Below are positions 7,942 through 36,671 of a stretch of 64,000 nt of DNA, one piece after another. Source of the DNA: Candidatus Omnitrophota bacterium (lineage in GTDB: Bacteria; Omnitrophota; Gorgyraeia; Gygaellales; Profunditerraquicolaceae); NCBI GenBank assembly GCA_011620275.1, contig WOZK01000031.1, positions 23,479 through 87,478 on the forward strand, given 5' to 3'. The notes beneath the pieces are model-generated. The model ran no database searches. It had not been told where the DNA came from and saw only the letters and a list, made by a program, of their open reading frames with translations. A program made the position numbers and the translations under genes. The number at the start of each line of letters is the position of its first letter. The first letter of the stretch is position 1.

Positions 7942-7969
7942 CTGTGTAAAACCCGGGGATGAATGCGGC
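7942..7969. repeat. Right terminal inverted repeat of the IS element (reverse complement GCCGCATTCATCCCCGGGTTTTACACAG)
   Basis: Read directly from the sequence. It pairs with 6765-6792. Confidence 0.6.
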
Positions 7970-7973
7970 TGGA

Positions 7974-8300
7974 TTAACTGTTTTGCCTAAGAACGTGCGC
8001 CACGCCTGTTGTGACCGAATTGGAAAGGCTGATACCGGCGCGAAGAGTTTTTCCCCCTTCCTGCATAGTCCAGATCACTTCGCCTTTCGTGTAGAACGGC
8101 CGGTTTTTGTCGGAAAGAAGAAGCCAGCAATCCAGAGAAGCGCCTCGCGACAACGAAACTTCTGTAAATATCCCCAGCCCGCGTATGCTTACGTCGCTGA
8201 CCGTTCCCATACACTGCAAGGAGGAACCGGTCAAAGAAAACTTTAATGGAAAGCTGACCGGAATCCTGACAAAAAATCTTCTCTCGTCTTGGTTTACCAT
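7974..8300 (-). CDS. Single-domain PilZ protein, paralog of the gene at 6237-6581
   Basis: The RxxxR motif appears as ERRFFVR and the DxSxxG motif as DVSIRGLG. The C-terminal GEVIWTMQEGGKTLRAGISLSN aligns with the other PilZ. Its stop codon directly abuts the right end of the IS element. Confidence 0.6.
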   Translation of the reverse strand: MVNQDERRFFVRIPVSFPLKFSLTGSSLQCMGTVSDVSIRGLGIFTEVSLSRGASLDCWLLLSDKNRPFYTKGEVIWTMQEGGKTLRAGISLSNSVTTGVAHVLRQNS

Positions 8301-12528: not shown

Positions 12529-12546
12529 AACTCTATTCCCTCCGGG

Positions 12547-13742: not shown

Positions 13743-14686
13743 CTCATCTTCCCCGTGCCGTAAATACGCCCGCGGGTGTACCTGTCGATAAATGGAGAAA
13801 CCGCGTTCATCATCAAGATGGCGTAACATGTCCCTTCCGGATATCCTCCCCACAGCCGGATAACCGCCGTTAACAGACCGCATCCCGTACCATAGATCAA
13901 CTGTCCTTGGGCGGTCAAAGGCGATGTCACGTAATCAGTCGCCATGTAAAAGGCACCCAGCACCAGCCCGCCGGAAAGCAGATAAAACAACCAATCCCCG
14001 CTGAACAGCCCGGAAGGTCCGAAAACATAATGAAGTATCCCTGTGGTAAAGAGATAGGAAACCGGAATATGCCAGGTTATATATCCTTTCAAAAAAAGGA
14101 AAACCGCACCTGCCAGCAGCCCTACCACGCACACCTCACCTATACACCCCCCTTTGTTCCCCAGGAAAAGATCCAGATAAGAATACACCTGCCGGAGATG
14201 CCCCTCCTTCAACGCCGACAACGGGGTGGCGGAAGCAACGGCGTCGAAACCCGGAGCCCGAAAAGAAGTCATGTAAGCCGGCCAGGACGCCATAAGGAAG
14301 GCCCTTGCCGCGAGGGCCGGATTGAATATGTTCTGTCCCAACCCTCCGAAAATCTGTTTGCCTACGGCGATTGCGAAAAAGGAACCTACTGCCGGCATCC
14401 ACAGCGGCACGCCGGACGGCAGGTTATACGCCAGAAGCAGTCCGGTAAGAAAAGCGCTGCCGTCTAACAAGGTAACCTGTCTGCGCGTCATTTTTTGCAA
14501 CAGCCATTCCGTGGCCAGCGCTGCCGCGACCGCTGTCCCTATTACTGCCAGGGCCGCATATCCGAAAAGATAGACCCCGGCCGCTCCGGCTGGAAGAAGC
14601 GCCAAACTGACGCCCCACATTATGCGCGCCGTGGATTGATGCGCATGCATATGCGGCGCCGCGGTTACTATAAGCTTATTTCCCAT
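13739..14686 (-). CDS. rnfD: Rnf complex subunit D
   Basis: The N-terminus is VTAAPHMHAHQSTARIMWGVSLALLP. It is a polytopic membrane protein of the NQR2/RnfD family. Confidence 0.85.
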   Translation of the reverse strand: MGNKLIVTAAPHMHAHQSTARIMWGVSLALLPAGAAGVYLFGYAALAVIGTAVAAALATEWLLQKMTRRQVTLLDGSAFLTGLLLAYNLPSGVPLWMPAVGSFFAIAVGKQIFGGLGQNIFNPALAARAFLMASWPAYMTSFRAPGFDAVASATPLSALKEGHLRQVYSYLDLFLGNKGGCIGEVCVVGLLAGAVFLFLKGYITWHIPVSYLFTTGILHYVFGPSGLFSGDWLFYLLSGGLVLGAFYMATDYVTSPLTAQGQLIYGTGCGLLTAVIRLWGGYPEGTCYAILMMNAVSPFIDRYTRGRIYGTGKMR

Positions 14687-15200
14687 TACGTAAAGCCTCC
14701 CTTACTTCGGCCGCTTTCAGGTCTATGGAAGAGCTGACCGCCCGCGAAGAAATAGTGGCCCCGGTTATCGCCTGCACCCCGGAAACCCGGGCCGCATCCA
14801 CGCCGCTGAACCTGCCTGTGAAAGATCCTTCCGCAACCTTGCTTCCCAATCCGGGGGTCTCGTTCTGGTTGAGGACTTTTATCGCTTTTATCTTCGCCTG
14901 GGCGTCCATACAAACCATAGTCTCTATCATGCCGGAATACCCCTTACCCACGGCTTTGAACAACACGCTTAGTAACTTGCCGTTTTTATCATAAGCCCTG
15001 TAGAAGAAGACCGTATCCCCTTTAAGCACCGGTGTGAAAACCGCGGCTTCAGGTTGCAGTCCCTTCAATGCCGCTTCCTCCTCCAGACCAGCCTGCGCCG
15101 CGATACGCGAAGCGGTGACGGCGTTGACCGCCGCAAGCAGACCTCCGGCCGATAATGCTATAAAGCCCAAAATGAACGCGGACCTTAAGATATCTTTCAT
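14676..15200 (-). CDS. rnfG: Rnf complex subunit G (FMN-binding)
   Basis: The start was moved to the ATG at 15200, which overlaps the rnfC stop as ATGA. It has an N-terminal TM anchor. The FMN-attachment motif is ITGATISSRAV. Confidence 0.8.
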   Translation of the reverse strand: MKDILRSAFILGFIALSAGGLLAAVNAVTASRIAAQAGLEEEAALKGLQPEAAVFTPVLKGDTVFFYRAYDKNGKLLSVLFKAVGKGYSGMIETMVCMDAQAKIKAIKVLNQNETPGLGSKVAEGSFTGRFSGVDAARVSGVQAITGATISSRAVSSSIDLKAAEVREALRNGK

Positions 15201-16468
15201 CTGGCGGCCTCCGCTTTGGCTTTCTTTATATATTGTACCAGCCTGCGGTTCGCCGGACATACATATGCGCACGCCCCGCATTCCAAACAATCGGCCAACC
15301 CGTGCCGTTTAGCTTCTTCCAACATCCCTTTTTCGGCCGCCGCCCCCAGCATACAAGGAAGCAACCCGGTGGAACAGACGCGCACGCATCTGCCGCAGCG
15401 TATACAGGCGCTCTCTTCCAGGATACGGCCGCTTTTCTCCCCCAGCACCAACACCCCGCTGGTGGTTTTGATCACCGGGACATCGATCCCGGCCTGGGTT
15501 ATGCCCATCATCGGCCCACCTATGATTATCCTACGCGGTTCTTCTTTAAGCGGACCGCAGAAGGAAATCAGCGCGGATATCGGCGTGCCTGTCCGGACCA
15601 GTAAGTTTGCCGGATTCGACAGGCAATCCCCGGTGACGGTAACCACTCTTTCATAAAGCGGCTTACCGAGAAAAACCGCTTCATAAGCGGCGAACACTGT
15701 GGCCACGTTCTGCACGACGGCGCCGGCTTCAAACGGCAGTTTGCCGCGCGGAACCTCTCTGCCCAGCACGCTTTTAATCAACTGTTTTTCCCCACCCTGG
15801 GGATAAAAAGACCTTAATTTCTTAACCCTCAGCGGACCGGAGGCTTTGGCCAGTAAAAGTTCAACCGCCCTGGGCTTATTGTCCTCAACGGCTATGCATA
15901 TATCCTCGGCCCCCAGTATGCGACCCAACAGCAACGCCCCTTTAATGATCTCGTCGCTTTTCTCCAGCATCAAGCGGTAATCGGAAGTCAGATACGGTTC
16001 GCACTCGGCGCCGTTAACGATCAAAGTCCTCACACGGACCGGAGGTTTAAGCTTGAGGAAAGAAGGAAAACCCGCGCCTCCCATACCTACCAGGCCGGCG
16101 TCGCGTATTATATCGAGAAGTTCCTCCGGTTGCAAAGAGTCCACGTCACGCGCTTCGCGCGCCCGGAAAGCGTAAGAATCAGGCAGCCGCGTCTCTATTA
16201 CCGCCGCGCTGCACCTGCCGAGCACGGGGTGCGCGCAGGTTTCGATTGAAGAAACCGTGCCGGTCACGGAAGAATGAACTGCCGCCGACGGCATGGCCCC
16301 GGCGGAGGCTATCCGCTGTCCGGTAATGACTTTATCGCCCGGCTTAACCTCAAGCAGGCCAAGCTTGCCTAAATGCTGGCAGAACGGGATGAACATCTTT
16401 TCCGGCGGGGGCAGGACCGTTATTTTCTTATCTTCGGTGGCTTCTTTGCGATGCTCTAATTTAACCAT
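15197..16468 (-). CDS. rnfC: Rnf complex subunit C (NADH-binding, two [4Fe-4S] clusters)
   Basis: The motif GMGGAGFPSFLK is present. Two ferredoxin motifs are present: CIRCGRCVRVCSTGLLP and CLECGACAYVCPANRRL. Confidence 0.85.
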   Translation of the reverse strand: MVKLEHRKEATEDKKITVLPPPEKMFIPFCQHLGKLGLLEVKPGDKVITGQRIASAGAMPSAAVHSSVTGTVSSIETCAHPVLGRCSAAVIETRLPDSYAFRAREARDVDSLQPEELLDIIRDAGLVGMGGAGFPSFLKLKPPVRVRTLIVNGAECEPYLTSDYRLMLEKSDEIIKGALLLGRILGAEDICIAVEDNKPRAVELLLAKASGPLRVKKLRSFYPQGGEKQLIKSVLGREVPRGKLPFEAGAVVQNVATVFAAYEAVFLGKPLYERVVTVTGDCLSNPANLLVRTGTPISALISFCGPLKEEPRRIIIGGPMMGITQAGIDVPVIKTTSGVLVLGEKSGRILEESACIRCGRCVRVCSTGLLPCMLGAAAEKGMLEEAKRHGLADCLECGACAYVCPANRRLVQYIKKAKAEAAR

Positions 16469-25470: not shown

Positions 25471-26679
25471 TTACTCCTTTTTGTAAAGCCTCTCGTTGAG
25501 AGGTTTCACCTTGTAGCCGCTCTCGGCCCCCGGCAGCGCCGCAGAAGGCTCGGTGAGAAAGAATTCTCCTTCCTCGATCCTGGTCTTCAACAGCACGGCT
25601 ATCTTGCGCGCGCGCGCATAGCTGGAAAGGCTGCCTGTGGGAACGGTCTTACCGCGTAGTTTGATGTTCCCGGAACGCAACTCCGCGTAACTTACTTCAG
25701 CGATGATGCGGGATGACCTTTGCGGATAATCGCGGCCGTAATCTACCACCGGAGCGTATATCTCGGCATCGGTAACCGCCGCCCGCCTAACCACTTCCTC
25801 ATCAAAAACGGGGATGGGCACGCCGATGCCTATGGAAAGCGTCACCCCGTAACCCGCCATACTCGTGCCGACCAGCCATTCCGGGCTCATCTGTTTCAGG
25901 TCGCCGATAACCGCAAGCGTACCCGCGCCTCCCAGAGGGATCCCGTTCCTGCCGCGTTCGACGCAGGGGTTGTGCTGCGTCCCGTGCCAGGCTATGTAAC
26001 CGATCCCGCCTCCGAGAAAAATACGGGTGCCTATGCCTATGGTTCGGTAATAGGGGTCTTTCAGCAGAGGCGAAAGCTGCCCGGCGGAAGAATAATTGGC
26101 GTTGCCGAGCCGCGGTTTAAGCATCCCCATATAGGTAAAAACGGTCTTGCCGGAGAGGTTGACTGCAACATTATAATTCTGATAACAATTGCGCATATTG
26201 AAGAGAACCGCCTCGTTTAAATCCCTGATGTTAAGCAGTGTCTCCAATTTTCTCCGGGGATAGCAGTCGGTACCGTAAGCGCTGCATTCCAGACGGACGT
26301 CTTTGCCCGCTGCCAATTCCTGTATCACGTGCCCGCCGCCGTATTTGAATTCCCCGGGAAAAATCTTATTGCGGGGATCATCGTCCGGCACGGCGGTAGC
26401 CCCGAGGAAAACGTCCACGGCGCCAAAAGCGGCATAAACCGGCACGTCATTGACCGTGCAGCTGCCGCCCCCCAGCTTGATCCTCGGCTTGGAGTGACCG
26501 ATATTGAAATAAACCCCGCTGGAACACATGGGTCCGAAAGTGGCGGTGGTGACCACGTCCACCTCCCTGGCGACCTTCCTGACGCCTTTCTTAGCCACCA
26601 GGTCTATTATCTCCTCGGCAGTGACCACCACGGCGTCTCCCCTGCCGATCTTAGCGTTGATCTCTTTGATAGTCTTCAT
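25471..26679 (-). CDS. COG1900/DUF39 sulfur-incorporating homocysteine biosynthesis protein (MA1821-type)
   Basis: It is 402 aa and begins MKTIKEINAKIGRGDAVVVTAEEI, as in archaeal COG1900 proteins. It is followed 16 bp later by the NIL-ferredoxin, a known gene pairing. Confidence 0.65.
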   Translation of the reverse strand: MKTIKEINAKIGRGDAVVVTAEEIIDLVAKKGVRKVAREVDVVTTATFGPMCSSGVYFNIGHSKPRIKLGGGSCTVNDVPVYAAFGAVDVFLGATAVPDDDPRNKIFPGEFKYGGGHVIQELAAGKDVRLECSAYGTDCYPRRKLETLLNIRDLNEAVLFNMRNCYQNYNVAVNLSGKTVFTYMGMLKPRLGNANYSSAGQLSPLLKDPYYRTIGIGTRIFLGGGIGYIAWHGTQHNPCVERGRNGIPLGGAGTLAVIGDLKQMSPEWLVGTSMAGYGVTLSIGIGVPIPVFDEEVVRRAAVTDAEIYAPVVDYGRDYPQRSSRIIAEVSYAELRSGNIKLRGKTVPTGSLSSYARARKIAVLLKTRIEEGEFFLTEPSAALPGAESGYKVKPLNERLYKKE

Positions 26680-26699
26680 TTCCCCTCACTTTGGCCCGT

Positions 26700-26921
26700 T
26701 CAAACCGAGACCACCTCTTTTACTTCCGGTACTTCCTTTTTCAGGATGCGCTCTATGCCCATTTTAAGTGTAAACTGGCTCATAGCGCAGCATCCGCAGC
26801 TGCCGGTGAGTTTCACTTTCACCACTCCGTCTTCTCCGACATCCACCAGATCCACGCTCCCGCCGTCTGCCGCCAGCATCGGCCTGATCTTTTCCAGCAC
26901 TGCCTCAACCTTTTCTCTCAT
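26700..26921 (-). CDS. NifU-like (Nfu C-terminal domain) Fe-S cluster carrier
   Basis: It is 73 aa. The motif LTGSCGCCAMSQFTL matches the Nfu CxxC scaffold motif. Confidence 0.7.
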   Translation of the reverse strand: MREKVEAVLEKIRPMLAADGGSVDLVDVGEDGVVKVKLTGSCGCCAMSQFTLKMGIERILKKEVPEVKEVVSV

Positions 26922-26997
26922 CTAATCCTCCCGTCTGCCGTACTCCATTGACGTGCGATCTTGTTTTGAACGGCCTTGCCCGGTCCGCGAAGATGCG

Positions 26998-27897
26998 TCA
27001 GGACAAATATCTCTCCCCCGTATCCGGAAGGACCGTAACTACCGTCTTTCCCCTGCCGAGCTTCTCAGCCGCCCTCAACGCGGCCCATACCGCGGCCCCC
27101 GCGGAAATCCCGGCAAAGATGCCTTCGCGCGCAGACAATTCAAGACGGCAGGACAAAGCGGCCTCGTCGGTAACCGTAATTACTTCGTCTATCAAAGAGA
27201 CATCCAGCACAGGAGGAATAAACCCCGCTCCTATACCCTGTATCTTATGCGCCCCGGCTTTACCTCCGGAAAGAACCGGGCTGGCCGCGGGTTCGACCGC
27301 GATAACCTTCACGCGGGGGTTCTTCGCCTTCAACGCCGCGCCGACGCCTGTCAACGTCCCGCCTGTGCCGACCCCGCAGACAAAGGCGTCGATCCTTCCT
27401 GGGGTATCGCGCAATATCTCCACCGCCGTTGTCCTGCGGTGGGCTTCGGGATTGGCCGGGTTGCTGAACTGCCTGATGGAATAACCTTTCTTGACGGAAC
27501 GGCCTATTTCCCCGGCTTTATCGATCGCGGCGCGCATGCCGCCGGCGACGGGCGTGAGCACGACTTCCGCCCCGTAACTGCCCAGTATTTCGCAACGCTG
27601 ACGGCTCATATTTTCCGGCATGACTATAATACATTTGTAGCCGCGCAAGGCGGAAAGCATAGCGAGACCTATCCCGGTATTGCCGCTGGTAGGCTCGATT
27701 ATGGTATAGCCCGGTTTCAGCTGCCCGCTGCGCTCCGCTTCATTGACAATATTGAGGCAAATGCGGTCTTTTATACTGCCTCCGGGGTTTCCCCCTTCTA
27801 TCTTTACGAAGACGTTCGCGCCGCGCCGCTCGGGTAGCGAATTCAATTTTACCAGGGGAGTATTCCCAATCAGGGCAGAAACATCTTTAGTGAACAT
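26998..27897 (-). CDS. cysK: Cysteine synthase (O-acetylserine sulfhydrylase), PLP-dependent
   Basis: The motifs GNTPLVKLN, the PLP-Lys region, IEPTSGNTGIGLAM and GVGTGGTLTG are present. It is 299 aa. Confidence 0.8.
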   Translation of the reverse strand: MFTKDVSALIGNTPLVKLNSLPERRGANVFVKIEGGNPGGSIKDRICLNIVNEAERSGQLKPGYTIIEPTSGNTGIGLAMLSALRGYKCIIVMPENMSRQRCEILGSYGAEVVLTPVAGGMRAAIDKAGEIGRSVKKGYSIRQFSNPANPEAHRRTTAVEILRDTPGRIDAFVCGVGTGGTLTGVGAALKAKNPRVKVIAVEPAASPVLSGGKAGAHKIQGIGAGFIPPVLDVSLIDEVITVTDEAALSCRLELSAREGIFAGISAGAAVWAALRAAEKLGRGKTVVTVLPDTGERYLS

Positions 27898-27906
27898 CGG
27901 CGTATT

Positions 27907-28356
27907 TTATATCTGATAGACCATCTGTTCTTTATCTTTACGGTTGAGACTCTCCAGCAGGTCGGAAAAGGTGACGCCGTCGATTATGCGCATAGTGGCG
28001 GCGGAGACCCTCTGCCAGACGTCCCGGAAAACGCACTTATATATATCCCGGCACCCTTTATATCCGTCCTCAACGCAGGCGATCGGCTCAACCGGAGAAG
28101 CGATGAAACGCACAACCTGCCCCAGGGATATCTTCGACGGCGGCCTTGCGAGGAGATAACCTCCTACTTTGCCCCGGCGGCTCTCGACAAAACCGCCTTT
28201 TTTCAATTCCAGCAGCACTTGCTCAAGAAACTTGATGGGAATATCCAGCCGGCCGGCCATGTGCTGGATCCTCACCGGAACCGGCTTGTCATAATAGTGG
28301 ATCGCCAGATCAAGTATGGCTTTAAGCGCGTAATCGCCTTTATATGTTATTCTCAT
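27907..28356 (-). CDS. Rrf2-family transcriptional regulator (IscR/CymR-like, three Cys)
   Basis: The start was moved to the ATG at 28356. The N-terminal HTH begins MRITYKGDYALKAILDLA. The conserved motifs GYLLARPP and CxxxxxC...C (CVEDGYKGC...C) are present. Confidence 0.75.
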   Translation of the reverse strand: MRITYKGDYALKAILDLAIHYYDKPVPVRIQHMAGRLDIPIKFLEQVLLELKKGGFVESRRGKVGGYLLARPPSKISLGQVVRFIASPVEPIACVEDGYKGCRDIYKCVFRDVWQRVSAATMRIIDGVTFSDLLESLNRKDKEQMVYQI

Positions 28357-28382: not shown

Positions 28383-28411
28383 AGTATACCAAAATAATGC
28401 CTTTTTGTCAA
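28383..28411 (-). promoter_or_regulatory. Sigma70-type promoter of the Rrf2-sulfur operon (TTGACA, 17-nt spacer, TATACT)
   Basis: The minus-strand sense reads TTGACAaaaaggcattattttggTATACT. The -35 element lies inside an 8-bp inverted repeat, AATGCCTT / AAGGCATT (28395-28426). Confidence 0.45.
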
Positions 28412-28441
28412 CCTTATTAAGGCATTAGCCTGAAACGAAAC

Positions 28442-29347
28442 TTACAAAGAAAGCAGATATCTGGCGGCGGAAAGCGCGGCTTTTGCCCCGTCTCCGGCGG
28501 CAATAATGATTTGTTTTTCCGGGACATCGGTAACGTCGCCGGCGGCGAACAGTCCTGGGACGTCGGTTCCGTTGGAACAATCGACCTTAATCTCCCCTTT
28601 TCCGTTCCTGGAGGCGATGGCGGCGAATTCGGAATTAGGGACAAGCCCTATCTCCACGAAAACCCCGCTGACCGGCAGTATCGATTCTTTACCCTGCGCC
28701 GAGAACCGTATATCTTCCACGAAACGGCCGCCTCTAACCTCTATTACCGAGGCATTCTTATAAACCTCCACATTGCCGGCGGCCGAAAGCCTGTCTATCA
28801 GGATCGTGTCGGCCGTGAAGCTCCCGGAAGATTCCAGCACATATACCCTGGAGGCTATGCGCGACATCTGTAGAGCCGCGTCCAGCGCCGAGTTGCCGCC
28901 GCCGATGACCGCGACGTTCCGGCCGGCGAACAAAGGCCCGTCGCAGACCGCGCAATAGGTAAGCCCCCTGCCGAGAAATTCCTTTTCCCCCTTAACTCCC
29001 AGCAGGCGCGAACGTTTCCCCGTCGCAACGATCACCGCCGAGGCGCTATATGTATCTCTTTCTCCGGAGACCCTGAACCGCCTGCCGTCCCGCGTAAGGG
29101 ATAAAGCGGTCTCGGGCTGCACCAGTTTGATACTGAATATCTTCAGATGCTCTTCGAATCTTGCGGTCAACTCCGGCCCGCTAACCACCTGACATCCGGT
29201 GTAATTCTCGATGCGTCCGCTCCAAGCCGCCTGTCCGCCGATGTCGCGGCTGATCATCATGAAATCCAGTCCCTTCCTAGCGGCATAGATGGCGGCCGTA
29301 ACTCCCGCCGGCCCTCCTCCTATTATCAAAAGATCCGCCTGTTGCAT
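28442..29347 (-). CDS. trxB: Thioredoxin-disulfide reductase
   Basis: The FAD motif is LLIIGGGPAGVTAAIYAARKG. The redox-active centre is CAVCDG. The NADPH motif is GGGNSALDAAL. It is 301 aa. Confidence 0.75.
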   Translation of the reverse strand: MQQADLLIIGGGPAGVTAAIYAARKGLDFMMISRDIGGQAAWSGRIENYTGCQVVSGPELTARFEEHLKIFSIKLVQPETALSLTRDGRRFRVSGERDTYSASAVIVATGKRSRLLGVKGEKEFLGRGLTYCAVCDGPLFAGRNVAVIGGGNSALDAALQMSRIASRVYVLESSGSFTADTILIDRLSAAGNVEVYKNASVIEVRGGRFVEDIRFSAQGKESILPVSGVFVEIGLVPNSEFAAIASRNGKGEIKVDCSNGTDVPGLFAAGDVTDVPEKQIIIAAGDGAKAALSAARYLLSL

Positions 29348-29367
29348 CTCGCTTCCCCCGCGTCCTT

Positions 29368-29604
29368 TTAAACCAGCCCCAGCGCCTGTTTTACGCGTTC
29401 GCGGTCGAATCCTACAATAAGCTCTCCTTCGATGTCGACGACCGGCACGCCCATCTGGCCGGTCCTGTCGACGATTTCATCCGCCGCAGCGCGGTCAACG
29501 GAAACGTCGATATCCTCGAAGACAACGTTGCTTTCCTTAAGGAACTGTTTCAGGCGGATACAGTAAGGACATGTGGGAGTGCTGTAAACCTTTACATTCT
29601 TCAT
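29368..29604 (-). CDS. Glutaredoxin-like protein (CPYC)
   Basis: It is 78 aa. The motif YSTPTCPYCIRLKQFL is present on a thioredoxin fold. Confidence 0.65.
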   Translation of the reverse strand: MKNVKVYSTPTCPYCIRLKQFLKESNVVFEDIDVSVDRAAADEIVDRTGQMGVPVVDIEGELIVGFDRERVKQALGLV

Positions 29605-29641
29605 ATACGCCTCCTTTACCGGGACCGGGCGGCCTCGCCTG

Positions 29642-30106
29642 TCAAGTCTTAAGAACGTCCGGTGTCAAATCCATAATACTTGCAACGTTCAGCTTAATCA
29701 TATATTCGGGTTCCGGGAGCAGGGCTTCGGGATGAAAAGGATGCCCTTTGCGGCCGCCGAGGTTGGTTATCAATCTTTGCGCCAGCCTGGCGGTTATTCT
29801 GTTCTCCCATAATCTCAAGACCTCTGCCGGCAGCCGTTCTTTCAGAATTATCTCCGCCTCCCCTTTTAGGCAATACCCCTTGAATCCGTGTTCTTCGACG
29901 GCAGTTACGCTGAACCTGCCACTGCGCAGTATATTGCCGTAAGTGCGTTTCTTATAAAGATCCAGCAGGTATATCTCCCCCGCGGGAGCGACTATATCCA
30001 CCACGCCTTTACAAGAGGAATGCGGATAACCGTCCGCGTCTATGGAACAGGCTACGACAAAACTCTGCGCGAGCAAAAAAGAAGAAACTTTTTCCGGGAT
30101 AATCAT
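29642..30106 (-). CDS. PNPOx-like FMN-binding split-barrel protein
   Basis: The start was set to the ATG at 30106 (MIIPEKVSSFLLAQSFVVACSIDADGYPHSS). The upstream part of the ORF-track frame overlaps the rubredoxin gene and is regarded as non-coding. Confidence 0.5.
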   Translation of the reverse strand: MIIPEKVSSFLLAQSFVVACSIDADGYPHSSCKGVVDIVAPAGEIYLLDLYKKRTYGNILRSGRFSVTAVEEHGFKGYCLKGEAEIILKERLPAEVLRLWENRITARLAQRLITNLGGRKGHPFHPEALLPEPEYMIKLNVASIMDLTPDVLKT

Positions 30107-30113
30107 AAGCGGG

Positions 30114-30272
30114 CTAAATTTTCTCGAACATATCTTTCCCGACACCGCATTCTGGGCAAACCCAGGCATCCGACAAAGCCTCAAACGCCGTCCCCGGAGC
30201 GATCCCGGCTGAAGGATCCCCCTGCTGAGGATCATATATATATCCGCAAACTGTACAACGGTATTTCTGCAT
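30114..30272 (-). CDS. rub: Rubredoxin (52 aa), absent from the ORF track
   Basis: Hand translation of the minus strand gives [52 protein letters not shown]. Both CxxCG knuckles are present, along with the conserved YIYDP and DxWxCPxCG segments. It lies directly upstream of the PNPOx-like gene and downstream of the flavodiiron protein gene. Confidence 0.8.
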
Positions 30273-30414
30273 AATAACCTCCTTTGCGCCGCAAATAATT
30301 CGGCGTTCCGCGGTCTGCTCATGATTTCAAAACTGAGCGGTATTTGTATTATCCGCGCGCCAAGGGCGGCGGTCCAGTTTCGGCTCGTGATTTTACCTTA
30401 GCCTAAAGGAGAGG

Positions 30415-30446
30415 CGTGTGTTCACCTGTGTGAAAGTATTCACTAC
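30415..30446. promoter_or_regulatory. Composite palindromic operator candidate (TTCAC-N4-GTGAA-N4-TTCAC; includes TGTGA-N6-TCAC)
   Basis: The sequence is gtgTGTTCACctgTGTGAAagtaTTCACtac. It lies between the flavodiiron protein stop and the rubredoxin start. It resembles Crp/Fnr (HcpR) or Rex half-site architecture. Confidence 0.3.
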
Positions 30447-31643
30447 TCACTTGTGCGCTTCGATAAGTCTGCGCCCGAAATCACGGCCGAATTCGCGGCA
30501 GGCCTCTAAATCAACCGGAGAAGGGCAATATTGAACGGAGATTCCGCGGCAAACCGGAGGTATACCGGCTCCGGACAACACCGCTTCCATCTCATTCACC
30601 GCCCCGCCAGCCCAGCCGAAAGAGCCGAAAACCGCACTAAGACGGTTCCGCGGTTTTAATCCTTTGAGCAAATGAAGGAATCCGGCGAGATCCGGCAGCA
30701 TGCCGTTGTCATGGGTGGATGAACCAAAAAGATATCCTCCGGCCTCAAGCATCCTGCCTATTATTTCCGTGCGGTCGGCCCGGTTTATGTCGAACACCTC
30801 GGCCTCTACCCCCGCCTCCAACAACCCGGAGTAAATCGCGCCCGCCATCTTTTCAGTGCCTCCCCACATGCTTTCATAGACGATCACGGCCCTGGGGACT
30901 GAAGAATTCAGCGCCCAACGGGAGTAGCTCTCGATTATCGCGCCGGGATCGTTACGCCATATCATACCGTGGCTGGGAGCGATCATGGAGACCGACAGGC
31001 CGCTTTCCCGCAGTTCCGCGATCTTTCCGGATACAAGCCGGCTCAAAGGCCAGAGGATATTGGCGTAGTATTTGGCCGCCTCTCGCATAAGCGTCCCCTG
31101 CTCGGCCTCGTCGGCGAACCTTCTGCAGTGGGCGAGGTGCTGCCCGAAAGCGTCGTTGGAAAATAGTATTTCCTTCCCTTCCAGATAAGTGAACATACTG
31201 TCCGGCCAATGCAGCATGGGGGCTTCAATAAAAACGAGCGATCTCTTCCCCAGGGCAAGTCTGTCGCCGGTCTTTACGGTCTGAAAAGGCCAATCCGCGT
31301 AATAATGCCTCGATAGACCCTCGCGGCATTTTGCCGTCCCTAACAGCTTTGCCCGTGGGGCCGCGCGCATCACTTCCGGCAAGGCTCCCGAATGGTCTGT
31401 TTCCACGTGGTTCGCCACGACATAATCTATCTTCTCCGGTGGTACGATCGCGGAGATATTCTCCAGCAAATCCCGTGAAAAAGGTCCGAATACGGTATCT
31501 ATAAGAGTGATCTTGTCATCTATTATAAGGTAGGCATTATACGTAGTTCCCGAGGAAGTATTGAAAGTGTGACCGTGAAAATTCCTGATGTTCCAGTCCA
31601 CGGCACCGACCCAGAATATATCTTTGCTTATTTCACAAAACAC
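30447..31643 (-). CDS. fprA: Flavodiiron protein (rubredoxin:oxygen/NO oxidoreductase; metallo-beta-lactamase plus flavodoxin domains)
   Basis: It has a GTG start preceded by an AGGAGGAG SD sequence. The di-iron ligand motif reads ANHVETDHSGALP (HxExDH). The C-terminal flavodoxin-like domain includes AVIVYESMWGGTEKMA. Confidence 0.8.
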   Translation of the reverse strand: MFCEISKDIFWVGAVDWNIRNFHGHTFNTSSGTTYNAYLIIDDKITLIDTVFGPFSRDLLENISAIVPPEKIDYVVANHVETDHSGALPEVMRAAPRAKLLGTAKCREGLSRHYYADWPFQTVKTGDRLALGKRSLVFIEAPMLHWPDSMFTYLEGKEILFSNDAFGQHLAHCRRFADEAEQGTLMREAAKYYANILWPLSRLVSGKIAELRESGLSVSMIAPSHGMIWRNDPGAIIESYSRWALNSSVPRAVIVYESMWGGTEKMAGAIYSGLLEAGVEAEVFDINRADRTEIIGRMLEAGGYLFGSSTHDNGMLPDLAGFLHLLKGLKPRNRLSAVFGSFGWAGGAVNEMEAVLSGAGIPPVCRGISVQYCPSPVDLEACREFGRDFGRRLIEAHK

Positions 31644-31660
31644 CGGCTCCTCCTTTAGGC

Positions 31661-31688
31661 TTGAAAACCGGGGATTCCTGCGGTTTGA
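31661..31688. repeat. Intergenic repeat family, copy D (distal-type unit immediately upstream of the fprA RBS)
   Basis: GAAAACCGGGGATTCCTGCGGTTTGATT is identical to the 28 nt at 23838-23866. Confidence 0.5.
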
Positions 31689-31704
31689 TTGAAGCTCCCC
31701 GCCA

Positions 31705-32748
31705 TCATTCGCTCACGATATCCTTGCCGGTCTCCTGCCCCCGCCAGAATACCAACCGCCGCCTGGCGTACGCGATATTCTGTTCCTGTTGAACGTCCTT
31801 TCCCGCCCTGGCGAGGAAATCGGAATACGCCGCCGCGGCTTCCCTGCCCTTAAAAAGTTTGTCGAACACAAGCGCCTTGTTGAAATAAGCGGCGGTGAAT
31901 CCGGGATCTATCTTCAAGGCCATGTTGAAATCGTTAAGGGCGTCCATGTATTTCTCCTGCCGGCGGAAGACGACGCCCCGGTTATTGTAGGCCTTGACGC
32001 AGGCGGGGTCCAGCTCTATGGCCCTGGAATAATCGGCGATAGCCTTGGCGTACTGTTTAAGACGCAGGAAAACGTTGCCGCGGTCGTTGTACGCCTGCAC
32101 ATAAAAAGGGTCTATGCGTAGGGCTTCGTTAAAATCGGCCAGGGCGGAATCAAAAACTCCGAGTTTGAAATAAGCGTTACCCCGGTTATCGTAAGCCTCG
32201 CTGTAATCCTCATCCAGCTCTATTGCAGTGCCGAAATCCCGCACGGCCTTCTCGTACATCCCGGTCTCGAGATTAACCCTCCCCCTGGCGTTGTATCCCG
32301 GAGCGTAAGAAGAATCCATCCCTACCATCTTTTCCCCGTCGGCCCCGGCAGACCTATAATCTGTCTTATCGAGAAAAATATTGCAGCGTATAAGATACGC
32401 TTTTATGTAACCGGGGCTGGCTTCTATGGCGGCGTCCAGCTCTTCCAACGCCGGATTATGATATTTTTTACGGAAATAATCCACGCCTTTGAATATATTC
32501 ACAGCCGTAGAGGAAGGCACCAGACCCTGCCGGATATCCTCGATTATCTGCAGGTAAAAAACCGCCTCCGGATCTAACCTGTTGAGCTGGTATGCCTGCC
32601 GGAATTCCGCGGATGCCGAAGGGAAATCGGCTTTCATGGCGTAAACCACCCCGCGGTAAATGAATTCGCCTCTTTCCCCGGCGGCAAAAGCCGCGCCGGA
32701 CGACAACAATACCGCCCCCAGGATAAACCCGGATATCTTAGTCAGCAT
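31705..32748 (-). CDS. Secreted TPR-repeat protein
   Basis: The start was moved to the ATG at 32748, which is preceded by a GGAGGGAAG SD sequence. The signal peptide is MLTKISGFILGAVLLSSGAAFAA. There are at least six TPR units, for example AYNDRGNVFLRLKQYAKAIADYSRAIELDP. Confidence 0.6.
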   Translation of the reverse strand: MLTKISGFILGAVLLSSGAAFAAGERGEFIYRGVVYAMKADFPSASAEFRQAYQLNRLDPEAVFYLQIIEDIRQGLVPSSTAVNIFKGVDYFRKKYHNPALEELDAAIEASPGYIKAYLIRCNIFLDKTDYRSAGADGEKMVGMDSSYAPGYNARGRVNLETGMYEKAVRDFGTAIELDEDYSEAYDNRGNAYFKLGVFDSALADFNEALRIDPFYVQAYNDRGNVFLRLKQYAKAIADYSRAIELDPACVKAYNNRGVVFRRQEKYMDALNDFNMALKIDPGFTAAYFNKALVFDKLFKGREAAAAYSDFLARAGKDVQQEQNIAYARRRLVFWRGQETGKDIVSE

Positions 32749-32987
32749 GATTCTTCCCTCCGGAGAGGAATACCTCGTACTAAAACCAGCAGTTCCTCTG
32801 TTTTTCCGGCGAAGCGGATGCGTCGCCGGTACACAGCGCATATTCGGCTGCAGATTTACTGCTATTCTTTTTCCGACAGTAATCGATTCGGAGCAAATCC
32901 CTCTTTTTGATTCTCGATCGCTCCTGCAGCATCCCTGAAACTTACAACCAATCATCCCGTTTTGATCAATCGGCCGGCACGAAAGTC

Positions 32988-33389
32988 TCAGCCAATAGTC
33001 AATACAGCCGAATTCTCCCAGAGCCCGTGGATATTACAATAAGCGCAGGCGACCACCGTGCCCGGCTTCTCTGTTTTTATCTTCACTGTTACCCCGGGGA
33101 GAGAATATACGCCGCTGGTATCCGACCCCTGGGTAGACGCTCCATGCGCGGGAAATTCGCACCTGGCGACCTGATAAGGGAATTTCTCGCCCTGCGGAAG
33201 AAAATACACCTCTATATAAGCGATATGATGAGCTGAGGTGTTTGGATGCGGAATCTGCCTGCCAACCGTCACGATTATCTCGAATGTCCCGTCTTTAGAC
33301 GCCTGAAGAGGCAAATCTATAGCCGGAACGTGTTTTTCCGTTTTCCAATCGGCATTCTGGAACAGGTCTTTCATCAAAGTCATTTTCAC
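32988..33389 (-). CDS. sor: Superoxide reductase (1Fe neelaredoxin/desulfoferrodoxin centre II type)
   Basis: The motif EKHVPAI is present. The His ligands are in HPNTSAHHIAYIE. The Cys-His ligands are in CNIHGLW. It is 133 aa. Confidence 0.8.
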   Translation of the reverse strand: MKMTLMKDLFQNADWKTEKHVPAIDLPLQASKDGTFEIIVTVGRQIPHPNTSAHHIAYIEVYFLPQGEKFPYQVARCEFPAHGASTQGSDTSGVYSLPGVTVKIKTEKPGTVVACAYCNIHGLWENSAVLTIG

Positions 33390-33399: not shown

Positions 33400-33780
33400 T
33401 CAATAGCCGGTGAAACCTTCGTTTTTAATGTTGCTTCCGAGGCACCTGATCTGCGAACAAACCCCTCTCATTTCCGTTACCATGGCGGGAGACCCGAAAA
33501 TGAATACCGTTCTATCCTTGAATAACGGATCGCGCCCTTCTATGAAAGCGCGGTCTATCCGCCCGTAAAAACAGCCATCCTCCGGCGGCCGGCTCTCGGT
33601 AACCACATAGTGCACCTTAAACCGGCCGTTATCCGGAGCCGCCTCATCGAAAATAAGTTTCAGGAACTGCCCGGGAAGGAAATCAATTTTCTCCGCGCAG
33701 TCGAAACGAAAACTCCTGATACAGGAAGTCCTTTCCGTGCCGCCGGCAAAGGAAACATCGAATATCCTCATAAGCCGCAC
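33400..33780 (-). CDS. Hypothetical protein; possible degenerate fragment of an FNR-like FAD/NAD oxidoreductase
   Basis: FAD-domain-like segments are present, CIRSFRF and DFLPGQFLKL, and a C-terminal VFIFGSPAMV. The Gly-rich NAD motif is missing and the spacing between segments is too short. It overlaps the ldh stop by 13 bp. Confidence 0.3.
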   Translation of the reverse strand: MRLMRIFDVSFAGGTERTSCIRSFRFDCAEKIDFLPGQFLKLIFDEAAPDNGRFKVHYVVTESRPPEDGCFYGRIDRAFIEGRDPLFKDRTVFIFGSPAMVTEMRGVCSQIRCLGSNIKNEGFTGY

Positions 33781-34712
33781 TCGTCCAGCACGTTTCTTAT
33801 CTCCACGGCCGACTTCTTCAACAATCCAATCTCTACTTCGTTAAGCCTGGGCCTGAGGATCTGCCGCACTCCGGAACGGTTCACCACCGCCGGGAGGCTC
33901 ATATAGACGTCGTTCATGCCGTAATAATCCGCAACAAGGCAGCCGACCGGCAACACGGAATTCTGATCGTGCAGGACGGCATGAGTGATACGCACCAGGG
34001 CGAGCCCGATACCATAGGAAGTCTCCCCTTTGCGCTCGATGACCTTGTAAGCGAAAGTGCGCACTTCCTCCGATATTTTTTCCAGCAGGTCCCCACGGTC
34101 GCATTTACCGCAGACCGGACAGTATTCATCCAGCAGTATCCCGCCGATCATAGCGCGGCTCCAGACAGGGAACTCGCTGTCCCCGTGCTCCCCCAGCATG
34201 TAAGCGTGAATGTTGCGCGCGTCGACACCGCAATGGCATGAGAGTAACCAGCGCAACCTGCCGGAATCCAGCACCGTGCCGGAACCTATCACCTTCCCGG
34301 AAGGCCTGCCGGAGAATTTATACGCGGCGTAAGACAGCACGTCTACCGGATTGGAAACTATAAGGAGTACCGCGTCCGGAGCGTGTTTTACTATCTCGGG
34401 GACGATCCGGCGAAAGAGGTCCACGTTGTCCTTTGCCAGCGCCATGCGCGTCTGGCCCGGGTTTTGCTTGCGCCCGGCGGTAATCACCACCAGGTCCGAT
34501 CCTGCGATATCCGAGTATGTCCCGGAAGAGACTTCTACCGGAGAAACGATATACGGCATGCCGCTGGAAAGATCGAGGACCTCTCCTTCCGCGCGCTCTG
34601 TGTCGACGTCAACTATCACGATCGATCTGGCCGCTCCTCCGATCATAAGACTGTAGGTGTAGCGCATGCCGACGTTGCCGCAGCCGATGACCGCAACTTT
34701 TGGTTTAAGCAT
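33768..34712 (-). CDS. ldh: L-lactate dehydrogenase (LDH/MDH family; Gln at the substrate-specificity position)
   Basis: The Rossmann motif is KVAVIGCGNVGM. The motif ITAGRKQNPGQTRMAL aligns its Q with LDH Gln102 and its TR with Arg109. The catalytic His region is MLGEHGDSE. Confidence 0.75.
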   Translation of the reverse strand: MLKPKVAVIGCGNVGMRYTYSLMIGGAARSIVIVDVDTERAEGEVLDLSSGMPYIVSPVEVSSGTYSDIAGSDLVVITAGRKQNPGQTRMALAKDNVDLFRRIVPEIVKHAPDAVLLIVSNPVDVLSYAAYKFSGRPSGKVIGSGTVLDSGRLRWLLSCHCGVDARNIHAYMLGEHGDSEFPVWSRAMIGGILLDEYCPVCGKCDRGDLLEKISEEVRTFAYKVIERKGETSYGIGLALVRITHAVLHDQNSVLPVGCLVADYYGMNDVYMSLPAVVNRSGVRQILRPRLNEVEIGLLKKSAVEIRNVLDECGL

Positions 34713-34725: not shown

Positions 34726-35829
34726 CTACAGTCCCGCTTTCAGTGTGCTGTTCTCCAGCTCTTCTATCTCCGCCTTCAGCTTATCCGGCAAACCCAGCAC
34801 CCCGCCATCCATGAATCCACGCACGATCAGCGACTGCGCCTCCCGAGGGGAGAACCCGCGGCAGCGCAGGTATTCGATTTCATCCTTGTTGATCCTGCCG
34901 ATGGCGGCTTCATGCGAAAGGTCCACGTCGCGGTAATCGGTCTCCATCTCCGGTATCGCGTAAATGCTGCCCTGTTCCGGCAGTATCAGGCCCCGGCATT
35001 CCAGGTGACCTTTGACGTTGCGGGCGGAGGCCTTGATATGCCCGCGGGCCACCACCTTTCCGCCCAGACTGACCGCTCTCGAGATGATCTCCGCCTGCGT
35101 CTCCTCGGCCTGCAGCGCGACGCGGGATCCGACGTCCTGCAGGGAACCGGGATGCGAAAGTATTATGGAATTAAAACTCGCCCGCGCTTTTCTGCCGTGC
35201 AAAAGAGCCGTGGGATACATAGTGATGTCGCGCACCGGTTTCAGACAGACGTAATTCGAGATAAACACCGCCTCTTCCCCGACGGAAGTGATGCTCACCG
35301 GTTTCACGCTGACGCTTTCCTGCCAGGAATGGATCATGGTAAAATTAAGATATGCCCCGTTGTGCACGAAAAATTCCGATATACCCAGATGCATGCCTTC
35401 GGACGCGGAGTGGGAGGCGGAACACCCCGTTATTATGTAGGCCTTGGCACCCTCTTCCACTACGATCAGGTTGTGCACCTTCTGCCTGAACCCCTGCTGT
35501 TTCAGAAAAAGGCAGGCCTGCACCGGGAATTCTATTTTATGACCGCGCTTGACCCGGATGAAATATCCGCCTTCAGTCTCTCTGTCGAAATCCCTGCCCG
35601 TGGAACGGAAATTAGCGCCGAAATAACCGGCGGCCTCCGGATATGTTTCCAAGGCTTCCTTGATCTCCATTATCTCCAGGCCGTCTGAAAGGGACCGGGC
35701 AAACATCAGCCCGGAGTCCTGCTGCAGGAAGCTTCCCGAGCGGTCCTTCTCGGAGAAATCCATCCCCGTGGAGACGATGGTATCACGGTCGCGACCCTCC
35801 AGATTATCTTGCCGATTGTGCTCTGTCAT
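34726..35829 (-). CDS. sufB: SufB/SufD-family Fe-S cluster assembly protein
   Basis: A C-terminal beta-helix match to SufB/D is present, GKVVARGHIKASARNVKGHLECRGLIL. The start is uncertain; the ATG at 35829 overlaps sufC by 26 bp. Confidence 0.65.
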   Translation of the reverse strand: MTEHNRQDNLEGRDRDTIVSTGMDFSEKDRSGSFLQQDSGLMFARSLSDGLEIMEIKEALETYPEAAGYFGANFRSTGRDFDRETEGGYFIRVKRGHKIEFPVQACLFLKQQGFRQKVHNLIVVEEGAKAYIITGCSASHSASEGMHLGISEFFVHNGAYLNFTMIHSWQESVSVKPVSITSVGEEAVFISNYVCLKPVRDITMYPTALLHGRKARASFNSIILSHPGSLQDVGSRVALQAEETQAEIISRAVSLGGKVVARGHIKASARNVKGHLECRGLILPEQGSIYAIPEMETDYRDVDLSHEAAIGRINKDEIEYLRCRGFSPREAQSLIVRGFMDGGVLGLPDKLKAEIEELENSTLKAGL

Positions 35830-36535
35830 CGCATTCCATACATTTGTCGTATCCGCGTTCCCTGATGTTTTCGAATATCTCTTTCGGCCTGCCCACGCAC
35901 CACATCTTCCCATCTATCATCACGCAGCCTTTCCCGGCGTTTATATAATCCAGGATATAACCGGTATGGGTTATGATCAGGGCCGACTTGCCTTCTTCTT
36001 TGAGATATCCATCCAGTACTTTTCCCATGACCGAAATGTTCTCCAGATCCACGCCCGACTCCGGCTCGTCGAGGAGGAGCAGATCGGGATCCTGCAGGAT
36101 CAGTTGAAAAAGTTCCGAACGTTTCATCTCTCCTCCGGAAAACCCCATATTTATGTCCCTGGATAGATGCGAAGAAAGAGAAAGCCTTTCCGACATCTCC
36201 TTTATCAACCCGGCATTGCCGTTCAGACGGCCGGCGACCTGGGCAAGCTTGACGCCCCTGACCTGCGGAGGGTGCTGATACATTAACCCGAGACCGAGCT
36301 TCACTCTTTCTTCCACGGGAAGCCCGTCTATCCTGGTCTCTCCCAGAAAGATTTCGCCGGAGATCACTTTGTACCCCTCGAATCCCATTATCGCCTTAAG
36401 CAGCGTGCTCTTGCCGCTGCCGTTCGGCCCAAACAGCACAACCACTTCCCCCTTGCGTATATGCATATTCACGCCCTGAAGGATGAGATGCCCGGACACT
36501 TCCACGCTTATATCTTTGACTTCAAGCATCATCAT
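35804..36535 (-). CDS. sufC: Fe-S cluster assembly ATPase SufC
   Basis: The start is at the ATGATGATG at 36535. Walker A is GPNGSGKST. The ABC signature is FSGGEMKRSEL. Walker B is LLLLDEPESGVD. Confidence 0.8.
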   Translation of the reverse strand: MMMLEVKDISVEVSGHLILQGVNMHIRKGEVVVLFGPNGSGKSTLLKAIMGFEGYKVISGEIFLGETRIDGLPVEERVKLGLGLMYQHPPQVRGVKLAQVAGRLNGNAGLIKEMSERLSLSSHLSRDINMGFSGGEMKRSELFQLILQDPDLLLLDEPESGVDLENISVMGKVLDGYLKEEGKSALIITHTGYILDYINAGKGCVMIDGKMWCVGRPKEIFENIRERGYDKCMECDDRAQSAR

Positions 36536-36671
36536 GATTTCCCTTTGTATGACCGGCTCGCCGGCCCGTTCTATTCTACCAGTAAAGGAACTCCTTAGTA
36601 AACTATTTTCTTGAGAGAAACCTCCCGGTAGAAGCTGCATTCCTGGGCGGCAGCCGAAGGTGCGCTCCCGG

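Follow-up and report, generated by a model that had tools for sequence, protein, structure and literature searches.

In the Thermococcales, a cascade that runs from NAD(P)H:rubredoxin oxidoreductase (NROR) through rubredoxin to superoxide reductase (SOR), flavodiiron protein (FDP), and rubrerythrin has been established (PMC13333549), and an nror-fprA2-dsr operon of Clostridium acetobutylicum is cited in PMC3116461, where the classes of SOR are also defined. The rubredoxin:oxygen oxidoreductase (ROO) of Desulfovibrio gigas protects against NO too (PMC4287179). In Clostridium pasteurianum the Cp34/Cp9 protein pair, encoded beside a rubredoxin gene, acts as reductant of the peroxiredoxin Cp20, and the motif that prevails among Cp9 homologues is CP[YW]C (PMC3720550). 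In this work we analyzed a stretch of 64,000 nucleotides (nt) from a Candidatus Omnitrophota bacterium (assembly GCA_011620275.1, contig WOZK01000031.1, positions 23,479 to 87,478), hereafter called the window, in which an earlier note, made from the DNA letters alone, had placed an oxidative-stress gene island with a hidden rubredoxin gene of 52 amino acids (aa). As in the Pyrococcus/Thermococcus and C. acetobutylicum cascades, rubredoxin, a class A FDP, and an SOR are encoded together at this locus, and rubredoxin would likewise relay electrons from NAD(P)H to the terminal reductases. Our search of the literature found nothing specific on this cluster in Omnitrophota.

Gene content and proposed function of the cluster

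Judged from the protein families that it encodes, the region is likely to serve an uncultivated anaerobe of the Omnitrophota as a rubredoxin-centred cluster for defence against oxidative (possibly nitrosative) stress. Its seven open reading frames (ORFs) all lie on the minus strand at the places previously assigned to them, and each matches the family proposed for it in searches of Pfam and NCBIfam. Together with the remnant of a reductase gene at their upstream end, they are as follows, in the direction of transcription:

33400..33771, minus strand: remnant of an FNR-like FAD/NAD(P)-binding reductase, 123 aa (alignment to intact relatives)
32988..33383, minus strand: predicted 1Fe superoxide reductase (class II, neelaredoxin type), 131 aa (PF01880, TIGR00332)
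31705..32748, minus strand: TPR-repeat protein, 347 aa, with a Sec-type signal-peptide-like N-terminus (multiple TPR Pfam families)
30447..31643, minus strand: class A flavodiiron protein, 398 aa (ODP/Lactamase_B and Flavodoxin_1)
30114..30272, minus strand: rubredoxin, 52 aa (PF00301, NF045768)
29642..30106, minus strand: PNPOx-like split-barrel protein, 154 aa (PF01243)
29368..29604, minus strand: YruB/Cp9-type glutaredoxin-like protein, 78 aa, with a CPYC active site (TIGR02196, PF00462)
28442..29347, minus strand: low-Mr thioredoxin-reductase-like flavoprotein, 301 aa (Pyr_redox_2, E 9e-40)

By homology, the 52-aa rubredoxin would receive electrons from NAD(P)H by way of a reductase and would in turn reduce both the class A FDP, for the conversion of O2 to water and/or of NO to N2O, and the 1Fe SOR, for the conversion of superoxide to H2O2. 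By analogy with the C. pasteurianum Cp34/Cp9 pair, the thioredoxin reductase (TrxR)-like flavoprotein would reduce the CPYC glutaredoxin (Grx)-like protein, and the latter may then reduce a peroxidase or protein disulfides encoded elsewhere. The part of the rubredoxin reductase itself might be taken by the PNPOx-like protein, which is translationally linked to rubredoxin, by the TrxR-like flavoprotein, or by an enzyme whose gene lies beyond the window. The label of obligate electron donor that the earlier note gave to the rubredoxin is overstated; other routes of rubredoxin reduction are on record (PMC13333549).

A sister lineage with ∼94% nucleotide identity to the window, whose proteins are entered at NCBI under Candidatus Omnitrophota, served as the reference for synteny and for the ratios of nonsynonymous to synonymous substitution rates (dN/dS). 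The same cluster gene order is found there, with an intact 236-aa FNR-like gene, and a looser form of the cluster occurs across Omnitrophota; the description of the region as an oxidative-stress island is upheld by this conservation. Two further Omnitrophota loci (our L002 and L025) combine genes for FDP, rubredoxin, FNR-like protein, rubrerythrin, FMN_red, SOR, Grx, and TrxR, with the PNPOx gene in L002 only, and a short contig (L003) holds FDP, Grx, and TrxR only. Genes for ferritin, VIT1, or hybrid-cluster protein (Prismane) are often found nearby in other Omnitrophota clusters. When the window was searched by tblastn for rubrerythrin, FMN reductase, peroxiredoxin, VIT1, ferritin, and DUF3786, none was detected. 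We concluded that a larger Omnitrophota cluster, with rubrerythrin, FMN reductase, and a 158-aa rubrerythrin-like protein, is present in reduced form in the window.

A rubredoxin gene passed over by gene calling

The 52-aa rubredoxin frame is a real gene that is under purifying selection and was skipped by gene callers in this lineage. As predicted, the frame scores as rubredoxin, with 85.3 bits against PF00301 (cut-off 23) and 99.8 bits against NF045768 (cut-off 90). Both knuckles are present in its translation, C6-T-V-C9-G (CTVCG) and C39-P-E-C42-G (CPECG), along with an aromatic core of Y4, Y11, Y13, F30, W37, and F49. An AAGGAGG motif located 6 nt upstream of the ATG provides a strong ribosome-binding site. 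Between the window and the sister lineage the frame has accumulated 3 nonsynonymous and 11 synonymous differences, which corresponds to a dN/dS of 0.057.

We considered whether the rubredoxin frame might be spurious and a longer PNPOx ORF that overlaps it (197 or 226 aa) the true gene. One automated gene-call set did pick the 197-aa version: a public assembly that includes the identical contig has a PNPOx call of 197 aa there, which begins at position 30235 of the window and overlaps the rubredoxin, and rubredoxin itself is not called. The alternative frame is also open through the whole rubredoxin gene in the sister lineage, where it is closed by a stop codon just upstream. The rubredoxin frame, however, exceeds curated cut-offs and is preceded by a strong Shine-Dalgarno (SD) motif, and its substitutions are largely synonymous, whereas the PNPOx extension frame differs at ∼12 residues over the rubredoxin region between window and sister lineage (printed translations read by eye). 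Nearly all PNPOx homologues are ∼150-160 aa in length, and in the sister lineage a rubredoxin is called upstream of a 154-aa gene. On the rubredoxin scores, the SD motif, the substitution pattern, and the homologue lengths, we rejected the 197/226-aa ORF as a real gene; it has almost no chance of being correct and is effectively refuted.

The 226-aa ORF had been described as starting at an upstream TTG, but it begins with ATG at 30322. In the spacer between the FDP and rubredoxin genes, the sister lineage (L082 6790-6810) has a 15-nt insertion that is absent from the window (30300-30330) and that completes a perfect hairpin, GCGGCC-TTCA-GGCCGC; because of this 15-nt indel the window has the longer 226-aa open frame. 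No exact match to the rubredoxin product was found in a collection of 15 billion proteins, in which its same-contig neighbours are present; the 123-aa FNR remnant, from an NCBI source, is among the same-lineage neighbours contained there. The expectation that automated annotation would miss the rubredoxin proved right for this lineage and for the contig L092, and wrong for the sister lineage, whose orthologue was called and named rubredoxin by both NCBI and JGI. On L092, which is another Omnitrophota contig, the second uncalled rubredoxin (4830-4985, 75% identical) sits in a 535-nt "empty" gap that extends from the FDP gene to the PNPOx-like gene.

The terminal reductases

The FDP consists of an ODP/Lactamase_B domain (residues 35-226) and a Flavodoxin_1 domain (residues 254-386), with nothing further in its 398 aa, which is the class A architecture. 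Among solved structures the best match is 1YCF (425 bits), which was deposited as "nitric oxide reductase"; NorV of E. coli comes next, and the match to the rubredoxin:oxygen oxidoreductase 1E5D (309 bits) is also strong. We take 1YCF to be FprA of Moorella thermoacetica and 1E5D to be D. gigas ROO. The diiron ligands HxExDH, H, D, and H are conserved, with NHVETDH, MLHWPD, NDAFGQH, and APSHG aligned to 1YCF. Among NCBIfam models, the top matches were those for NO-reductase flavorubredoxin, with scores under their cut-offs. The best protein relatives, at 56-59% identity, come from metagenome-assembled genomes of Omnitrophota.

PF01880 (99.5 bits) is the sole Pfam match of the SOR, and TIGR00332 scored 90 bits. 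No desulforedoxin domain was found in the protein, and the full desulfoferrodoxin model TIGR00320 gave 36 bits (cut-off 146.9). The best solved relatives are the 1Fe-SOR entries 4BFF (E 2e-43), 2AMU, and 1DO6, presumably the enzymes of Archaeoglobus fulgidus, Thermotoga maritima, and Pyrococcus furiosus, respectively. In the alignment with 4BFF the motifs that supply the Fe(His)4(Cys) ligands are EKHVP, PHPNTSAHHI (HPNTxxHHI), and YCNIHG (CNIHG). The SOR is predicted from these features to be a 1Fe enzyme of class II (neelaredoxin type). Its start is probably the ATG at 33383, and its dN/dS against the sister lineage is 0.07.

Loss of an FNR-like reductase and the candidates for rubredoxin reduction

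An FNR-like reductase gene, which in relatives lies between ldh and sor, has been inactivated recently by an in-frame deletion and is now under relaxed constraint. The sister lineage has the intact 236-aa gene at the identical position, and the nucleotide alignment of the two reveals a 339-nt (113-codon) in-frame internal deletion in the window, with AACG microhomology at the junction. What is left (123 aa from ATG, or 126 aa from an upstream GTG at 33780) gave no match in Pfam and NCBIfam; it aligns to the first ∼65 and the last ∼55 residues of intact relatives and is without the ∼113 middle residues, including the GGIGxTP (GGIGITP) nucleotide-binding motif. The intact proteins of L002 and L025 measure 235-245 aa and have FAD_binding_6 and NAD_binding_1 domains, and among the best 120 clusters of the family the range is 219-256 aa, almost all members being 236 aa. 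In its intact form the protein is similar to the reductase modules found in flavohaemoglobin, cytochrome b5 reductase, and BenC. In the remaining codons, 17 nonsynonymous and 8 synonymous differences were counted against the sister lineage (dN/dS 0.57), in contrast to 0.06-0.20 for 11 neighbouring genes (Fisher p = 2e-4), and a CGPP sequence has changed to FGSP. A complete FAD barrel together with a GGxGxxP domain is not found in the ORF, which derives from the FNR family and is predicted not to be a functional member of it.

Could the 123-aa ORF be a functional small protein that was kept after the deletion? The deletion is in frame, and the start, the 4-nt overlap of the start with the ldh stop (arranged alike in the sister lineage), and the open frame are all retained. 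The 123-aa allele is confined to this lineage, where it is found on four contigs as two sequence variants; since it recurs in this way, the 339-nt deletion is probably not a one-off assembly error. Nevertheless, the rest of the FAD-binding barrel is gone along with the GGIGxTP motif, the dN/dS is well above that of the neighbours, CGPP has become FGSP, no other truncated form exists among the best 120 clusters, and at such low divergence chance suffices to keep a frame open. We therefore regard a retained function of the small protein as improbable. In a different Omnitrophota locus (L089 4880-5690), the flavodiiron gene appears to be split into calls of 102, 60, and 100 aa, and tblastn aligned only 148 residues; single-gene decay seems to recur in these Omnitrophota clusters.

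The earlier note had suggested that a degenerate FNR-like fragment at 33400-33780 may be the remnant of the missing NROR. The deletion and the dN/dS of 0.57 confirm that the gene is degenerate and FNR-like, but it belongs to the FNR superfamily and not to Pyr_redox_2, and is not a classical NROR. To our knowledge, the classical NROR families are all Pyr_redox_2 proteins and none is of the FNR-like type. No Pyr_redox_2 NROR (∼380 aa, no CxxC) was present in the gene tables for ∼5-47 kb of the window, and the sole Pyr_redox_2 protein in those tables is the 301-aa TrxR-like protein with its CAVC. To call the FNR-like gene a rubredoxin reductase is a contextual guess.

The PNPOx-like gene starts at ATG 30106, 7 nt past the rubredoxin stop; this start gives 154 aa, in agreement with the homologues (mostly from Omnitrophota) of 150-158 aa. 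The protein scored 38.7 bits against PF01243 (cut-off 28.1). In the alignment of the family, C32 and K33 are invariant, H29, H73, C79, H122, and H125 are nearly invariant, and the C-terminus carries the motif GHPxHPEALLP. The family has 514 representatives among 1.84 billion (E <= 1e-3). Searched by sequence against PDB chains, the protein gave marginal matches only, and the best solved matches of the family profile were the haem-binding HupZ (8e-6) and then the COG3576 entry 2HTD. An AlphaFold2 model (pLDDT 87) adopts a split-barrel fold, for which Foldseek returned a probability of 1.0 and a TM score of ∼0.6 to Rv2074, HupZ, GS26, and the FMN-binding protein of Desulfovibrio vulgaris. These structural neighbours bind F420, FMN, or haem; the similarity is generic and indicates no specific function.

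Rubredoxin immediately precedes the PNPOx-like gene in three lineages (L089, L092, and the window taken together with its sister lineage), SOR does so in L091 and L002, and in L090, L093, and L094 the gene lies inside such clusters; every examined context of the family was the same kind of gene neighbourhood. No fusion of PNPOx to rubredoxin, which would be Rosetta-stone evidence, was found in the 120 closest clusters or in 10 longer representatives checked with Pfam, the longer relatives being GGDEF or PAS-GGDEF fusions or having unrelated extensions. In two distant relatives (P0357 and P0393) the split barrel is fused N-terminally to GGDEF or PAS-GGDEF diguanylate cyclase modules, and these fusions suggest that the split barrel is a cofactor-binding or sensing module. 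A role of the PNPOx-like protein as rubredoxin reductase or related redox partner is plausible, and one possibility is a flavin- or haem-containing rubredoxin reductase, a "split Hrb". If true, this could explain why the lineage tolerated the loss of the FNR-like reductase. Only tentatively do we propose the wider, and rather doubtful, idea that the family has a dedicated and so far undescribed part in the rubredoxin/SOR pathway of Omnitrophota and of related lineages in the Planctomycetes-Verrucomicrobia-Chlamydiae (PVC) group.

The Grx-like and TrxR-like proteins

The Grx-like protein matched TIGR02196 (YruB family) with 91.4 bits (cut-off 88.55) and PF00462 with 68 bits. The gene for the TrxR-like protein starts 20 nt downstream of grx, and its product carries the redox disulfide CAVC (CAVCDG) and a GGGNSA motif. 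The top NCBIfam matches of the TrxR-like protein were the C-terminal half of AhpF (312.6 bits) and TrxR (285 bits), both under their cut-offs, and its best solved relatives are 4ZN0 and AhpF. The HRRxxxR NADPH motif is missing: the protein has VLESSGSFTA instead, with HRRDHLKA of 4ZN0 aligned opposite ESSGSFTA. Omnitrophota orthologues are likewise without HRR. The exchange of this motif for ESSGSFTA, with GGGNSA retained, suggests that the TrxR-like enzyme is probably not specific for NADPH; the orthologues have N or I at that position, so that any assignment of the donor is tentative. In work by Reynolds and coworkers in 2002, Cp34 is said to be an NADH-dependent TrxR-like protein of the Cp34/Cp9/Cp20 system. 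The resemblance to Cp34/Cp9 is established for the Grx-like protein by its TIGR02196 match and would extend to the remainder by analogy. The trxB and grx genes had been presented as part of an expansion of the sor-rub-roo trio; the pair is nothing new but a known kind of component (Cp34/Cp9-like).

A module of PNPOx-like, 158-aa rubrerythrin-like (no rubredoxin domain), and 78-aa Grx genes is found repeatedly in Omnitrophota and Aureabacteria. Its genes adjoin one another in L002 (11614-14073) and L092 (5001-7117), and it contains one to three extra genes in L093 (5001-7353) and L094 (395-2496). A 301-306-aa TrxR follows the module only in L002 and L092. The window lacks the 158-aa rubrerythrin-like gene, and 37 nt separate its PNPOx and Grx genes. 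The 158-aa rubrerythrin-like protein may be the normal client of the Grx/TrxR pair.

Transcription, regulation, and flanking genes

Three further features bear on the transcription and the borders of the cluster:

33768..34712, minus strand: L-lactate dehydrogenase (ldh), neighbour upstream of the FNR-like remnant (TIGR01771, 360 bits, cut-off 303.55)
30348..30376, minus strand: promoter-like site TGGACC-17-GATAAT in the FDP-rubredoxin spacer (consensus scan; weak evidence)
27907..28356, minus strand: Rrf2-family regulator, 149 aa, neighbour (PF02082)

In the upstream part of the cluster the intergenic gaps are 16 nt (fnr'-sor, where fnr' denotes the FNR-like remnant), 239 nt (sor-tpr), 61 nt (tpr-fdp), and 174 nt (fdp-rub); downstream they are 7 nt (rub-pnpox), 37 nt (pnpox-grx), 20 nt (grx-trxB), and 85 nt (trxB-rrf2). 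A promoter scan gave 10 sites against 6.5 ± 2.9 in shuffled DNA, and a terminator scan gave 12 against 9.6 ± 3.3; neither is above chance, and no operon structure can be claimed on this basis. The TGGACC-17-GATAAT site upstream of rub agrees with the consensus at 9 of 12 positions, in a scan that was at chance level overall, and is kept in the sister lineage, where indels have accumulated in the spacer around it.

The TPR gene starts at 32748, with a GGAGGG motif in front. By a hydropathy heuristic, the N-terminus of its product (MLTKISGFILGAVLLSSGAAFA/AG) has a hydrophobic core and an AxA motif; the product looks exported, and the other cluster products look cytoplasmic. NCBIfam returned generic TPR matches only, all under cut-offs. 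The gene is present in the sister lineage, where its dN/dS (0.09) indicates purifying selection, and absent from the clusters of the other Omnitrophota examined (L002, L025, and L003). The TPR gene is a lineage-specific insertion, and no functional link to the redox genes is evident.

The Rrf2 regulator scored 113 bits against PF02082 and fell below the cut-offs of the IscR, CymR, and NsrR models; its Cys-x7-Cys-x5-Cys motif suggests an Fe-S cluster. The regulator gene has a near-consensus promoter-like site on the minus strand, TTGACA-17-TATACT with a TG extension (28411-28383), and a perfect palindrome, TAATGCCTT-N15-AAGGCATTA, flanks this promoter at 28395-28427. No further copies of the palindrome were found in the window. 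Because the palindrome occurs only at the promoter of Rrf2 itself, there is no evidence for Rrf2 control of the detoxification genes; it is probably an auto-operator by which Rrf2 would be autoregulated. The Rrf2 gene heads a cysK-nifU-homocysteine gene set.

On the upstream side the cluster is flanked by genes for SufC and SufBD (Fe-S assembly; 34726-36640), and on the downstream side (25471-27897) by Rrf2, CysK, NifU, a homocysteine-biosynthesis protein, and a NIL/ferredoxin protein. The entire 12-kb stretch, which is syntenic with the sister lineage, is devoted to the homeostasis of iron-sulfur, thiols, and redox state. On the minus strand at ∼11740-16468 of the window, the domains RnfC, G, D, E, A, and B make up a complete complex of the Rnf type; it is compatible with ferredoxin-based anaerobic energy metabolism and fits the anaerobic lifestyle assumed here. 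A 166-aa DDE transposase fragment (DDE_Tnp_1_6) at ∼7359-7859 lies in a low-GC stretch (6001-8000; GC fraction 0.44 versus ∼0.53) and may be the remnant of a mobile element. An Rfam scan of the window detected one tRNA only, and no riboswitch or leader by the cluster.

Alternative readings of the cluster

Several points weigh against a single rubredoxin-centred cluster for defence against oxidative stress. No peroxide-removing enzyme (rubrerythrin or peroxiredoxin) was found by tblastn in the 64 kb, which leaves the locus without an outlet for the H2O2 from SOR and without a substrate for the Grx-like protein, and no intact dedicated rubredoxin reductase is present. The FDP sequence does not appear to separate O2 from NO preference, and gaps as long as those at sor-tpr (239 nt) and fdp-rub (174 nt) speak for two or three transcription units and not for one operon. 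The cluster might be mainly directed at nitrosative stress, with the FDP as a rubredoxin-fed NO reductase and the Rrf2 (NsrR-like) regulator in control. The FDP is indeed closer to the "nitric oxide reductase" 1YCF than to 1E5D (425 versus 309 bits), its top NCBIfam models are NO-reductase flavorubredoxins, albeit below their cut-offs, hybrid-cluster protein (Prismane) and Rrf2 genes occur in the neighbourhoods of relatives, and the ROO of D. gigas offers the precedent of an FDP that protects against NO. However, many class A FDPs reduce O2 and NO alike, SOR has no role in NO removal, and the SOR, rubrerythrins, and ferritin that are linked in relatives point to oxygen species; moreover, the Rrf2 palindrome is present only at its own promoter. 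On balance we consider a mainly nitrosative role unlikely, although it deserves some weight.

A closer call is whether the genes form one functional unit at all or three adjacent ones (suf-ldh-fnr'-sor, tpr-fdp, and rub-pnpox-grx-trxB), with the TPR protein unrelated to redox defence. The two long spacers, the second of which contains the conserved promoter-like site, are as expected for separate units, as are the absence of the TPR gene from the other Omnitrophota clusters examined and its seemingly exported product among cytoplasmic ones. The shared strand of the cluster genes carries little weight, because nearly every large ORF on record between ∼13 and 39 kb is on the minus strand. On the other hand, SOR, FDP, rubredoxin, PNPOx, Grx, TrxR, and FNR-like genes recur together, in varied orders, in many Omnitrophota lineages, which argues for a functional linkage even without co-transcription. 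Three independent units may well be the true arrangement, and we lean only slightly against it; a rubredoxin-centred stress defence cluster remains the reading that we prefer.

Significance

All parts of the cluster are of known kinds, and the current understanding of oxygen defence in anaerobes is unchanged. Of some interest are the PNPOx-like family and the 236-aa FNR-like protein as candidate rubredoxin reductases, a role that is plausible for the former and a guess from gene context for the latter. The 52-aa gene provides a worked example of a real small redox gene that is dropped by automated calling owing to a longer overlapping ORF. Pathway reconstructions of uncultivated anaerobes may wrongly score rubredoxin as absent in such cases, and the miss recurs at L092. 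The locus also records recent gene decay, in that a reductase gene has suffered an in-frame deletion within a defence cluster that is conserved in other respects; genome reduction has been proposed for Omnitrophota.

Comparison with known systems

The locus differs from the NROR cascade of Pyrococcus/Thermococcus and C. acetobutylicum in that it has no NROR of the Pyr_redox_2 type, relatives having instead the FNR-like reductase that is deleted here. Rubrerythrin is also missing from the window, and the PNPOx-like, TPR, and TrxR/Grx genes are added.

Like the rbo-rub-roo operon of D. vulgaris and the rd-roo operon of D. gigas, the window links SOR, rubredoxin, and FDP genes, and its FDP is of the two-domain class A. 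In contrast to the Desulfovibrio operons, the window SOR appears to be a 1Fe (class II) enzyme and not a 2Fe desulfoferrodoxin, the order is sor-tpr-fdp-rub with long spacers, and the FDP is nearer to 1YCF than to 1E5D. The "classical sor-rub-roo trio" of the earlier note is for this reason a misnomer: the SOR is of the 1Fe kind by its motifs, and sor and rub are kept apart by the TPR and FDP genes and by the spacers of 239 and 174 nt.

With the Cp34/Cp9 system of C. pasteurianum the window shares adjoining genes for a low-Mr TrxR-like protein and a 78-aa CPYC Grx-like protein near a rubredoxin gene, and the NADPH-type HRRxxxR motif is missing from its TrxR-like protein. The differences from Cp34/Cp9/Cp20 are the order of the genes (grx, then trxB), the lack of a peroxiredoxin gene either adjacent to the pair or within the 64 kb of the window (tblastn with the peroxiredoxin of a relative), and the 158-aa rubrerythrin-like protein that is the conserved neighbour in relatives.

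The Hrb protein of Moorella thermoacetica is a flavin-reductase split-barrel domain fused to rubredoxin. As in the Moorella FprA/Hrb system, rubredoxin and a split-barrel protein occur together in the window, the second gene following the first by 7 nt, a possible "split Hrb". Unlike in Hrb, the split barrel in the window belongs to PF01243 (PNPOx-like) and not to PF01613 (Flavin_Reduct). An Hrb-like fusion adjoins the FDP gene in the Omnitrophota locus L090.

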